Assembly (NCBI RefSeq): GCF_003334385.1
Contig: NZ_QOWN01000029.1
Length of the DNA stretch: 59,866 nt
Strand: one strand, 5' to 3'
Source of the DNA: Escherichia coli
GTDB lineage: Bacteria; Pseudomonadota; Gammaproteobacteria; Enterobacterales; Enterobacteriaceae
The translations under genes and the position numbers were made by a program. This document shows, one piece after another, positions 27,076 to 59,866 of this stretch (position 1 is the stretch's first letter; every line of letters starts with the position of its first letter). A model generated the notes under the pieces. That model made no database searches. It saw only the letters and a program-made list of their open reading frames with translations, and was not told the DNA's origin.

Positions 27076-27426
27076 TCACTCCTGGTCTATTTCTATCCGC
27101 CGAATCTGTAAACCGTCGTCTGCCACAATCTGCAGCATGTCACCATGACACTGTGGACAGCGGCGGACGCGCTGGGTCAGTAGCGTCACATACTGTTGGC
27201 ATGTTTCACACCAGCATTCGGCCTCTTGTTCTTCGAGGTGCAGTTTACAACCTTCCGCCACGCTGCCGCGGCAAACCAGATCAAAACAAAAGGCAAGAGA
27301 GCTGGTTTCGACACAAGAAAATGCGCCAATTTTGAGCCAGACCCCAGTTACGCGTTTTGCGCCGTGTTTTGCGGCCTGCTGTTCGATCAATTCCAGTGCC
27401 CGTTGGCAGAGGGTTATTTCGTGCAT
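27076..27426 (-). CDS. hypA: Hydrogenase nickel incorporation protein HypA
   Basis: 116-aa product starting MHEITLCQ with two CxxC zinc motifs. Confidence 0.9.
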   Translation of the reverse strand: MHEITLCQRALELIEQQAAKHGAKRVTGVWLKIGAFSCVETSSLAFCFDLVCRGSVAEGCKLHLEEQEAECWCETCQQYVTLLTQRVRRCPQCHGDMLQIVADDGLQIRRIEIDQE

Positions 27427-27457
27427 ATCGCCTCCCATTAACTATTGCCAGCTACAA

Positions 27458-27472
27458 GCAATAATTGTGCCA
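27458..27472 (-). promoter_or_regulatory. sigma54 (-24/-12) promoter for the hyp operon
   Basis: Minus-strand TGGCACAATTATTGC (GG-N10-GC), about 30 nt upstream of hypA start. Confidence 0.65.
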
Positions 27473-27585: not shown

Positions 27586-27601
27586 TGGCACAAAAAATGC
27601 T
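27586..27601 (+). promoter_or_regulatory. sigma54 (-24/-12) promoter for the hyc operon
   Basis: TGGCACAAAAAATGCT (GG-N10-GC), about 37 nt upstream of hycA start. Confidence 0.65.
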
Positions 27602-27637: not shown

Positions 27638-28099
27638 ATGACTATTTGGGAAATAAGCGAGAAAGCCGATTACATCGCACAGCGGCATCGTCGCCTACAG
27701 GACCAGTGGCACATCTACTGCAATTCGCTGGTTCAGGGGATCACGTTATCGAAAGCGCGCCTGCATCACGCCATGAGCTGCGCGCCGGACAAAGAACTCT
27801 GTTTCGTCCTTTTTGAACATTTTCGCATTTACGTCACCCTGGCGGATGGCTTTAACAGCCACACCATCGAGTATTACGTCGAAACAAAAGATGGCGAAGA
27901 CAAACAGCGGATTGCGCAGGCGCAACTGAGCATTGACGGCATGATTGATGGCAAGGTCAACATCCGCGATCGCGAACAGGTTCTGGAACACTATCTCGAA
28001 AAAATCGCTGGCGTTTACGACAGCTTATACACCGCTATTGAAAACAATGTGCCGGTGAATTTAAGCCAACTGGTAAAGGGACAAAGCCCGGCAGCATGA
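27638..28099 (+). CDS. hycA: Formate hydrogenlyase regulatory protein HycA
   Basis: 153-aa ORF starting MTIWEISEKADYIAQRH. Confidence 0.9.
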   Translation: MTIWEISEKADYIAQRHRRLQDQWHIYCNSLVQGITLSKARLHHAMSCAPDKELCFVLFEHFRIYVTLADGFNSHTIEYYVETKDGEDKQRIAQAQLSIDGMIDGKVNIRDREQVLEHYLEKIAGVYDSLYTAIENNVPVNLSQLVKGQSPAA

Positions 28100-39819: not shown

Positions 39820-39967
39820 ACATTGTCATCACATGTCATCGTCACTAGTGTCGATGACATCGTTTTTCCTGCATTACAGAAATTAATTTCCTTAAATAAC
39901 AGTAAATTAAAAACTGGCATGATTTGTGAATGTATCGGCGCATTAACTGTCATTGCTGGAGAATTTG

Positions 39968-44161: not shown

Positions 44162-45597
44162 TTTGCCTCCGATGCCAGTTCGTCAAAGACGTCTTTGCCG
44201 AGGGAGCATTCCGGGCACAGGAAGTTATCCGGGACTTCACTCCACGGCGTTCCTGGTGCAACGTCCTGCATTGGCTCGCCTTTTGCCGGATCGTAAATCC
44301 ACCGGCAGACGCTGCACTGCATCCGTGGGCCGAGGTCAGCCGTCGTGGCGGCAGAGGTTTCTTCTTTAACTACCGTATTCACCGTGCTCTGCGGCAGCGG
44401 CGCGAGCGCCCACTGACGGGCGATTTCGCGACCGTGTTCACGGCATAACTCCAGAGCGTCCTGGTCTGGTCGCCATTTGGCTTTCAGGCTGAGCGACATT
44501 TCGAAACCCGCATCCTGCAGGCGCGTGGAAAGACGATCCACCGCACCGCCGCTCCAGCCGTGAGAGCCGAAAGCACTGGCGCGTTTGTTACGGAAGCGTA
44601 AACCAGTCATCTCCTCCACCAGCCCGGCGATTTTCGGCATCATCACGTTATTCATCGTCGAAGTGCCGACCAGCACGCCTTTTGAGCGGAAGACATTGGT
44701 CAGGATTTCGTTTTTATCGCTTCGGGCGACGTTGAAAATTTTCACCGCCACGCGTGGGTCGGTTTCCGCAATCCCCTGGGCGATAGCGTCAGCCATCATG
44801 CGGGTGTTATTCGACATGGTGTCGTAGAAAATGGTGATTCTGTCTTCCTGATAATCAGCCGCCCATTTCAGGTACAGCTCGACAATTTGCGTCGGGTTAT
44901 CGCGCCAGACCACGCCGTGGGAGGTCGCTATCATATCGACTGGTAAGTTAAAGCCCAGGATCTCGGTAATTTTCGGCGTTACCAGGCGGCTGAACGGCGT
45001 CAGGATATTGGCGTAGTAACGCTGGCACTGCTCGAAAAGCTCCGTCTGATCCACTTCATCGTTGAACAGATGCTCGTCACAGTAGTGCTGACCGAAAGCA
45101 TCGTTACTGAACAGCACCGCGTCGCCTGTCAGGTAAGTCATCATGCTGTCCGGCCAGTGCAGCATTGGTGTTTCGACAAAAATGAGCTGTTTGCCGTTGC
45201 CGATATCCAGCGTGTCGCCAGTTTTCACCACATTAAAATTCCACTCCGGATGATGGTGATGACCATTTATCGAGTCGATAGCGTTGGCAGTACAGTAGAT
45301 CGGCGTATCGGGAATTTGTGCCATCAGTTCGGTCAGCGCCCCAGCGTGGTCCTCTTCTGCATGGTTAATCACGATGTAATCGATATCCGCCAGATCGATT
45401 TCATTACGCAGGTTCTGCACAAATTCGCGGCTGAATTTATGGTCGACGGTGTCGATCAGCACGTTTTTTTCTTCGCGGATGAGGTAGCTATTGTAGCTGC
45501 TGCCGCGCAGCGTTTTATATTCCGTGCCGTGAAAATCACGCACTTCCCAGTCACGTTGACCAACCCAATGAATGTTATTTTTCACCACAATAGACAT
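44158..45597 (-). CDS. norV: Anaerobic nitric oxide reductase flavorubredoxin
   Basis: 479-aa ORF: metallo-beta-lactamase-like + flavodoxin + C-terminal rubredoxin (CxxC...CPxC). Confidence 0.95.
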
Positions 45598-45644
45598 AGC
45601 AACCTCAATTTATTCAGCGTGTTCTAAAAAGATGTCTTGCTAAT

Positions 45645-45660
45645 TGCAGATTGCGTGCCA
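45645..45660 (-). promoter_or_regulatory. sigma54 (-24/-12) promoter of norVW
   Basis: Minus-strand TGGCACGCAATCTGCA (GG-N10-GC), about 50 nt upstream of norV start. Confidence 0.7.
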
Positions 45661-45714
45661 GTTTTTTATCTGATTGTTTTTACTCTATAAATAAAATTAT
45701 GCCCATTAATGAGT

Positions 45715-45771
45715 AGTCAAAATGACTATCAATCAAATGGTCGATATGACAATATCTATAGTCAAATTGAC
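45715..45771. promoter_or_regulatory. Three NorR enhancer sites (GT-N7-AC inverted repeats)
   Basis: GTCAAAATGAC (45715-45725), GTCGATATGAC (45740-45750), GTCAAATTGAC (45761-45771), spaced about 21-25 bp apart between divergent norV and norR. Confidence 0.75.
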
Positions 45772-45783
45772 AGTGAGGCAAAG

Positions 45784-47298
45784 ATGAGTTTTTCCGTTGA
45801 TGTGCTGGCGAATATCGCCATCGAATTGCAGCGTGGGATTGGTCACCAGGATCGTTTTCAGCGCCTGATCACCACGCTACGTCAGGTGCTGGAGTGCGAT
45901 GCGTCTGCGTTGCTACGTTACGATTCGCGGCAGTTTATTCCGCTTGCCATCGACGGTCTGGCAAAGGATGTACTCGGTAGACGCTTTGCGCTGGAAGGGC
46001 ATCCACGGCTGGAAGCGATTGCCCGCGCCGGGGATGTGGTGCGCTTTCCCGCAGACAGCGAATTGCCCGATCCCTATGACGGTTTGATTCCTGGGCAGGA
46101 GAGTCTGAAGGTTCACGCCTGCGTTGGTCTGCCATTGTTTGCCGGGCAAAACCTGATCGGCGCACTGACGCTCGACGGGATGCAGCCCGATCAGTTCGAT
46201 GTTTTCAGCGACGAAGAGCTACGGCTGATTGCTGCGCTGGCGGCGGGAGCGTTAAGCAATGCGTTGCTGATTGAACAACTGGAAAGCCAGAATATGCTGC
46301 CAGGCGATGCCACGCCGTTTGAAGCGGTGAAACAGACGCAGATGATTGGCTTGTCCCCTGGCATGACGCAACTGAAAAAAGAGATTGAGATTGTGGCGGC
46401 GTCCGATCTCAACGTCCTGATCAGCGGTGAGACTGGAACCGGTAAGGAGCTGGTGGCGAAAGCGATTCATGAAGCCTCGCCACGGGCGGTGAATCCGCTG
46501 GTCTATCTCAACTGTGCTGCACTGCCGGAAAGTGTGGCGGAAAGTGAGTTGTTCGGGCATGTGAAAGGAGCGTTTACTGGCGCTATCAGTAATCGCAGCG
46601 GGAAGTTTGAAATGGCGGATAACGGCACGCTGTTTCTGGATGAGATCGGCGAGTTGTCGTTGGCATTGCAGGCCAAGCTGCTGAGGGTGTTGCAGTATGG
46701 CGATATTCAGCGCGTTGGCGATGACCGTTGTTTGCGGGTCGATGTGCGCGTGCTGGCGGCGACTAACCGCGATTTACGCGAAGAGGTGCTGGCAGGGCGA
46801 TTCCGCGCCGATTTGTTTCATCGCCTGAGCGTGTTTCCACTTTCGGTGCCGCCGCTGCGTGAGCGGGGCGATGATGTCATTCTGCTGGCGGGGTATTTCT
46901 GCGAGCAGTGTCGTTTGCGGCAGGGGCTCTCCCGCGTGGTATTAAGTGCCGGAGCGCGAAATTTACTGCAACACTACAGTTTTCCGGGAAACGTGCGCGA
47001 ACTGGAACATGCTATTCATCGGGCGGTAGTTCTGGCGAGAGCCACCCGCAGCGGCGATGAAGTGATTCTTGAGGCGCAACATTTTGCTTTTCCTGAGGTG
47101 ACGTTGCCGACGCCAGAAGTGGCGGCGGTGCCCGTTGTTAAGCAAAACCTGCGTGAAGCGACAGAAGCGTTCCAGCGTGAAACTATTCGTCAGGCACTGG
47201 CACAAAATCATCACAACTGGGCTGCCTGCGCGCGGATGCTGGAAACCGACGTCGCCAACCTGCATCGGCTGGCGAAACGTCTGGGATTGAAGGATTAA
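45784..47298 (+). CDS. norR: Anaerobic nitric oxide reductase transcription regulator (sigma54 enhancer-binding protein)
   Basis: 504-aa product from [18 protein letters not shown]; GAF domain, AAA+ ([14 protein letters not shown]), HTH. The longer six-frame ORF from 45709 would run through the NorR binding sites. Confidence 0.93.
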
Positions 47299-59427: not shown

Positions 59428-59520
59428 GGTGAGGTGGCCGAGAGGCTGAAGGCGCTCCCCTGCTAAGGGAGTATGCGGTCAAAAGCTGCATCCGGGGTTC
59501 GAATCCCCGCCTCACCGCCA
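59428..59520 (+). tRNA. serV: tRNA-Ser (anticodon GCU), 93 nt with long variable arm
   Basis: GGTGAGGTGGCCGAGAGG...CCCCTGCTAAGGGAG...GGTTCGAATCCCCGCCTCACCGCCA; cloverleaf with anticodon GCT and encoded CCA. Confidence 0.95.
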
Positions 59521-59523
59521 TTT

Positions 59524-59600
59524 GCATCCGTAGCTCAGCTGGATAGAGTACTCGGCTACGAACCGAGCGGTCGGAGGTTCGAATCCTCCCGGATGCACCA
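59524..59600 (+). tRNA. argV: tRNA-Arg (anticodon ACG), 77 nt
   Basis: GCATCCGTAGCTCAGCTGGATAGAGTACTCGGCTACGAACCGAGCGGTCGGAGGTTCGAATCCTCCCGGATGCACCA; anticodon ACG, encoded CCA; only 3 nt after serV. Confidence 0.95.
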
Positions 59601-59798
59601 TATTCTACGTACTTTCAGCGATGAAGGTATGGAAGAGGTGGCGGTAATAACCGCAGGCACCAGGGAGGATAACGTTGCTTTAGCAACGGCCCGAAGGGCG
59701 AGCCGCAAGGCGAGTAATCCTCCCTGATGCACCATCTCTTACTTGATACGGCTTTAGTAGCGGTATCAAAAAATCTGCAGTAAAGTAAGTTTCCCGAT

Positions 59799-59866
59799 GC
59801 ATCCGTAGCTCAGCTGGATAGAGTACTCGGCTACGAACCGAGCGGTCGGAGGTTCGAATCCTCCCG
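59799..59866 (+). tRNA. tRNA-Arg (anticodon ACG), second copy, truncated by the window edge
   Basis: Identical to argV over the 68 nt present; the window ends before the last 9 nt. Confidence 0.9.

Follow-up and report, generated by a model that had tools for sequence, protein, structure and literature searches.

The 186 bp lying exactly between the start codons of norV and norR (positions 45598-45783 of the window, the whole 59,866-nt stretch of Escherichia coli DNA analysed here) almost certainly make up the divergent norR-norVW control region of E. coli, with norR beginning at the ATG at 45784. Scientifically, nothing here is new: this is one of the best-characterised sigma-54 enhancer regions, and the 504-aa start is the one found in current RefSeq annotation. 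Because the region is both known and identical to the K-12 reference, its interest is very low. The 80 species and 5,426 E. coli genomes compared below give clean, sequence-only support for the accepted norR start, and the locus carries a lesson for annotation: a longest-ORF rule pushes norR 25 codons into its own enhancer, and the resulting 529-aa over-extension still stands in some public records.

The identity of the locus follows from several kinds of comparison. The DNA is E. coli chromosome: an 801-bp query around the norR-norV spacer matched every one of the 5,426 complete genomes of the species, with identities of 95-100% and with the flanking genes annotated norR and norV. Alignment with a characterised norR-norV intergenic region, the check proposed with the sequence-only reading of this DNA, returned an identity: the whole spacer is the same as that of E. 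coli K-12 MG1655 (Hutchings et al., 2002; Gardner et al., 2003; Tucker et al., 2004, 2010). K-12 has the same three GT-N7-AC sites, sigma-54 promoter, flanking genes and 504-aa NorR, and apart from a reversed orientation there is no difference of substance. The spacer has a G+C content of 32%, compared with 53% for the whole window, and a scan against Rfam found no RNA family in or near it. The norV start codon lies at 45595-45597 on the reverse strand, and the gene order is norW (-), norV (-), norR (+), gutQ (-) and srlR (-). NorR, NorV and NorW all score above their NCBIfam equivalog cut-offs; NorR reaches 822 bits against NF003451 (cut-off 476), with residues 2-503 aligned to positions 3-511 of the 512-position profile, and its GAFTGA motif occupies residues 262-267 in 504-aa numbering. 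At its other end norR runs into the convergent gutQ ORF, the two stop codons sharing 4 bp (47295-47298), as they do in K-12; gutQ is called an incomplete pseudogene by PGAP in the best-matching genome. Three tRNA genes are clustered on the + strand at the end of the window (59428-59866), the last of them cut by the edge.

Table 1. Features of the norR-norVW locus in window coordinates, with the observations on which each row rests
Feature	Start	End	Strand	Basis
norW, NADH:flavorubredoxin reductase, 377 aa	43028	44161	-	ORF; NCBIfam NF003437, 684.6 bits (cut-off 392); RefSeq
norV, anaerobic NO reductase flavorubredoxin, 479 aa, intact	44158	45597	-	NCBIfam NF003954, 1045.5 bits (cut-off 711), residues 1-479 of 479
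norV 5' leader, predicted, 37 nt	45598	45634	-	Predicted +1 at 45634, rule of Bonocora et al. (2015)
Sigma-54 promoter of norVW, CTGGCACGCAATCTGCA	45645	45661	-	GG at 45659-45658, GC at 45647-45646; identical to ChIP-seq site OS25
IHF site, probable, AAACAATCAGATA	45667	45679	-	Two mismatches to WATCAANNNNTTR; in conserved A/T block 45661-45682
Spurious 25-codon N-terminal extension of longest norR ORF	45709	45783	+	Non-coding; no Shine-Dalgarno, stops, flat codon positions
NorR enhancer site 1, GTCAAAATGAC	45716	45726		Centre -87 from norV +1; -68 from norR ATG; Site1 primer and 21-bp oligonucleotide of Tucker et al. (2010)
NorR enhancer site 2, GTCGATATGAC	45740	45750		Centre -111 from norV +1; -44 from norR ATG; Site2 primer; column profile near 100%
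NorR enhancer site 3, GTCAAATTGAC	45761	45771		Centre -132 from norV +1; -23 from norR ATG; Site3 primer
Shine-Dalgarno GAGG	45775	45778	+	5 nt before norR ATG; anti-SD duplex -6.5 kcal/mol
norR, NO-sensing sigma-54 activator, 504 aa; GAF, AAA+ and HTH domains	45784	47298	+	RefSeq start; NCBIfam NF003451

On the norV side of the spacer, a -24/-12 element, TGGCACGCAATCTGCA, occupies 45645-45660 of the minus strand, 48 bp upstream of the norV ATG and directed toward it. The sequence-only reading had held that a minus-strand sigma-54 element drives norV, and the element is indeed the motif of a sigma-54 ChIP-seq peak, OS25, which was assigned to norV and flagged as experimentally confirmed in EcoCyc; the start predicted from it lies 37 nt ahead of norV (Bonocora et al., 2015; PMC4591121). 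The rule of that study sets the transcription start 19 bp downstream of the motif centre (PMC4591121); our coordinate map reproduces the published motif centre exactly, and the rule then gives a predicted norV +1 at window position 45634. Across the aligned species, the -24 GG of this promoter is kept in 77 of 79. At the -12 dinucleotide (positions homologous to 45645-45649), GC occurs in only 31 of the 79 species (Escherichia, Citrobacter, Salmonella and Kluyvera) and GA, as TTGAT, in 45, including Enterobacter, Klebsiella and Proteus; norV promoters without the canonical -12 C may have a different basal or regulated activity.

Farther from norV lie the three GT-N7-AC inverted repeats that had been read from the sequence as NorR sites, each at the position given for it, and they are the repeats on which the published experiments were done. 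The mutagenic primers of Tucker et al. [quoted passage not shown] Because these primers map onto the repeats, the three repeats are the experimentally defined enhancers, site 1 being the one nearest norV. Their centres are 24 and 21 bp apart. Mutation of any single site abolished induction of a norV-lacZ fusion (Tucker et al., 2010; PMC2831303), and the active NorR hexamer is thought to form from three dimers on the three sites (PMC2831303). With the predicted norV +1 at 45634 the sites span -82 to -137, and the published methylation protection by NorR, from -137 to -84 relative to the norV start (PMC2831303), translates into 45771 to 45718 and coincides with them.

Between enhancers and promoter, IHF binding has been described in the interval from the norV +1 to the NorR sites (PMC2831303). 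The best match to the IHF consensus in this part of the E. coli sequence, AAACAATCAGATA, is weak, with two mismatches. At the homologous position a perfect WATCAANNNNTTR is present in 24 of 79 species and a copy with one mismatch in 35, for a total of 59 of 79; in shuffled sequences the consensus was matched perfectly in 0.1% and with one mismatch in 3.9%. The binding itself is taken from the literature, and its position would probably be 45667-45679.

The way in which these elements act together is taken from published experiments on the identical sequence. Three NorR dimers occupy the three GT-N7-AC repeats, whose centres are at -87, -111 and -132 from the norV start, and on the enhancer DNA they appear to form a hexameric AAA+ ring. 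IHF bends the A/T-rich stretch that separates enhancers and promoter, and this lets the ring reach the sigma-54 RNA polymerase, held in a closed complex at TGGCAC-N5-CTGCA. Binding of NO to the non-haem iron in the GAF domain of NorR lifts the repression of the ATPase; the promoter is then melted and norVW transcribed.

Parts of this arrangement recur elsewhere. The GT-N7-AC core lies upstream of sigma-54 promoters of NO-detoxifying genes in Ralstonia eutropha (NorR-norA), Pseudomonas aeruginosa (hmp/fhp), Salmonella (norV) and Vibrio cholerae (NorR) (PMC2831303). These NorR-type regulons differ in their targets, which include a haem-b3 NO reductase and flavohaemoglobin, and the same paper describes the need for three sites as particular to the E. 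coli norVW promoter (PMC2831303). The authors' own comparison is with TyrR and its three TyrR boxes, where a hexamer built from three dimers on adjacent dyads has likewise been proposed (PMC2831303); the TyrR hexamer represses sigma-70 promoters, whereas NorR activates a sigma-54 promoter by ATP hydrolysis. NtrC at glnAp2 resembles NorR in its upstream dyad sites, in the looping of the DNA and in the use of an AAA+ hexamer to remodel the closed complex of sigma-54. In NtrC, however, oligomerisation is triggered by phosphorylation, while NorR appears to be pre-assembled on DNA, with NO releasing the repression by the GAF domain.

A sceptical reader might ask whether three short repeats and a -24/-12 match could be chance similarities with no regulatory role. 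Taken one at a time, the motifs would allow it: the window holds 16 copies of GTC-N5-GAC where 11.2 are expected, so that single sites are not rare, and the sigma-54 pattern with one mismatch allowed occurs 4 times against 3.6 expected. The non-randomness lies in the arrangement and not in the single motifs, since three GTC-N5-GAC within 60 bp were seen in 0 of 2,000 dinucleotide-preserving shuffles. Both position and sequence are also kept across species: of the norR upstream regions that we collected from 80 Enterobacterales species, nearly all have the three GTC-N5-GAC at -68, -44 and -23 relative to the norR ATG, and the mean column variability is 0.057 within the sites as against 0.347 in the spacers around them. 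Footprinting, mutagenesis and ChIP-seq have, moreover, been published on the identical sequence, and the mutagenesis, in which a change to any one site left no norV-lacZ induction, already refutes coincidence; the probability that we would still give it is negligible. A fourth GTC-N5-GAC, GTCACGTTGAC, falls within norV itself (45550-45560; codons 13-16, GQRD), some 74-84 bp past the norV +1. About 17 of 80 species keep it exactly, and it probably reflects coding constraint, not a NorR site. The loci of Proteus faecis and P. penneri have only two strict GTC-N5-GAC sites and are without an alignable norV promoter, and a norV-like divergent ORF is absent within 300 bp.

A different proposal complements activation of norVW by NorR from these sites: the three sites may also be operators, where bound NorR gets in the way of norR's sigma-70 promoter or of its early transcript and so regulates its own gene negatively. 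The geometry is suggestive. No more than 12 bp separate the last NorR site from the norR ATG, so that any norR promoter has to overlap the sites or be situated upstream of them. Negative autoregulation of norR was reportedly described by Hutchings et al. in 2002. The K-12 RefSeq record calls NorR a "dual regulator", and NorR at the three sites has been stated to regulate both norVW and its own divergent gene (PMC11334186). Against this stands a consensus scan of 45500-45900, in which a sigma-70-like site on the + strand was not found. Overall we regard such a second role as somewhat probable, with repression of the norR promoter presumably acting through the same three sites. A sigma-70-like TTGTCA-16-GATAGT on the minus strand (45725-45752) lies across NorR sites 1 and 2; it matches the consensus and no more, and chance alone would supply one such match in the region.

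The alternative that bears most directly on the annotation is that NorR is made, wholly or partly, from the in-frame ATG at 45709, as a protein of 529 aa with the enhancers inside its coding sequence. The ORF is real: it runs from 45709 to 47298 and covers all three NorR sites, just as the sequence-only reading had said of the longest norR frame. In K-12 (NC_000913.3), window position 45709 corresponds to 2,832,364 on the minus strand. That reading preferred the ATG at 45784, giving 504 aa, on the ground that the longer frame reads through the sites. The preferred start holds up on other evidence (the conserved ATG, the Shine-Dalgarno sequence, stops in the extension and the published residue numbering), and the reason originally offered is insufficient alone, because regulator sites can overlap coding sequence and reading through them is no proof that a frame is non-coding. 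The ambiguity about the start is a historical one. The longer frame is open in the window and in K-12, and it is on record on 48 contigs, including a legacy entry "putative ORF 529AA; ORF529 [Escherichia coli K-12]", as compared with at least 1,000 contigs carrying the 504-aa form; RefSeq, including K-12 NP_417189.2, gives NorR as 504 aa.

Initiation signals separate the two starts. The GAGG before norR is conserved at about 90% or more, and its Shine-Dalgarno pairing puts 45784 among the top 9% of the window's + strand ATGs. The ATG at 45709, in contrast, has no Shine-Dalgarno sequence: its 20 upstream nt give +1.5 kcal/mol, a value that 99.6% of the window's + strand ATGs equal or better. 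The codon homologous to 45784 is ATG in 80 of 80 species, tblastn matches all begin at residue 1 of the 504-aa form, and the N-terminus reads MSFSV in 58 of 78 sequences and MGFSV, MSFSL or MRFSV in most others. The 25 codons upstream fare differently. An in-frame stop interrupts them in 42 of 80 species, E. albertii, Salmonella and Klebsiella among these. Of the others, 24 have an open frame with no start codon at -25, and only 14 combine an open frame with ATG or GTG at -25; those 14 speak for the longer protein. Among close relatives, the ATG at 45709 is replaced by ATT in E. albertii, which also has a TAG, and by GTG in Escherichia sp. E1V33, which also has a TAA; and in 9 of 79 species the frame is broken by a change in length that is not divisible by three.

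Within E. coli itself both open and interrupted alleles occur. Diagnostic 32-mer queries against the 5,426 complete genomes found the K-12-type extension codons in 3,764 and a synonymous O157-type version in 309, both of them open at the two stop-prone codons, which makes the open allele with ATG 45709 the commonest in the species; alleles that keep this ATG and an open frame account for roughly 75% of E. coli genomes and also occur in Enterobacter-type species. The same queries placed a TAA at codon 8 (355 genomes) or at codon 9 (616 genomes), so that at least 971 of the 5,426 (18%) have a stop within the extension. A 91-mer from a GTDB representative labelled E. coli had zero exact matches among the complete genomes.

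Across the species, open frames are commoner than a simple shuffle null predicts (38 of 80 species against about 20), and this excess was considered as a sign of coding selection on the extension. It was rejected as such on four grounds: a frame incapable of encoding NorR is open in 32 of 80, the sites are free of stops in this phase, the species are related by phylogeny and the extension lacks a codon-position signature. Within the extension, variability differs little between the three codon positions (0.25/0.21/0.20), as opposed to 0.09/0.06/0.38 in codons 2-10 and 0.08/0.04/0.33 in codons 2-60 of the norR coding sequence. The apparent peptide conservation in the extension (SQND...YD...QND) consists only of translated half-sites. 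Across the 80 species, 209 of 236 NorR sites share one codon phase, and it is this shared phase, set by the 24- and 21-bp spacing, together with a site consensus that is stop-free in that phase, that accounts for an accidental long ORF from 45709.

The protein points the same way. In the alignment to the NorR family profile, residue 2 of the 504-aa form falls on position 3, and the profile has no room for 25 more residues. Functional studies use and number the 504-aa form: the nine residues examined in one of them (R75, Y98, D99, H111, C113, F264, G266, S292 and Q304; PMC2941729) all fit 504-aa numbering, and none fits 529-aa numbering. The supplements of Kim et al. (2012) and Cho et al. (2014) list no transcription start in the spacer, and a search for N-terminal or initiation evidence found no mention of norR, b2709 or P37013 in the TRAINSPOTTER supplements. 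Taken together, these observations support translation of norR from the ATG at 45784 as a 504-aa protein and make production from 45709 very improbable. We would give an equally small chance to a weaker version, in which the open-frame alleles yield a minor, 25-residue-longer proteoform or in which leader translation from 45709 through the enhancers is coupled to NorR autoregulation. The K. pneumoniae orthologue of norR, KPN_03044, was listed at 1551 nt compared with 1515 nt in E. coli (Kim et al., 2012; PMC3415461), a length that may be another start-site inconsistency of older annotation.

One natural variant touches the enhancers directly. The blood isolate E. coli AF3 (NZ_OZ547117.1) has a 45-bp deletion corresponding to window positions 45723-45767, which joins NorR site 1 to site 3 and leaves a single site; the deletion junction was found in 1 of the 5,426 complete genomes. 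Since the published loss of any one site abolishes norV induction, AF3 should be unable to induce norVW, although an assembly error is also possible.

The window holds other sigma-54 features as well. The promoters of hypA (27457-27472, -), hycA (27586-27601, +) and hydN (39914-39930, +) have motifs identical to the ChIP-seq-verified sites OS28, OS27 and OS26, respectively (PMC4591121). A further sigma-54-like sequence, TGGCACATCTACTGCA, lies in sense orientation at 27707-27722 (+) inside hycA (ORF 27638-28099), and this motif string is absent from the text of the ChIP-seq paper (PMC4591121). The longest hypA ORF in the window (27076-27438, -) starts at 27438 and encodes 120 aa. In the ChIP-seq table hypA lies 20 nt from the predicted +1, which by simple arithmetic would put its start at about 27426 and give a protein of 116 aa; this looks like the same longest-ORF pitfall as in norR.
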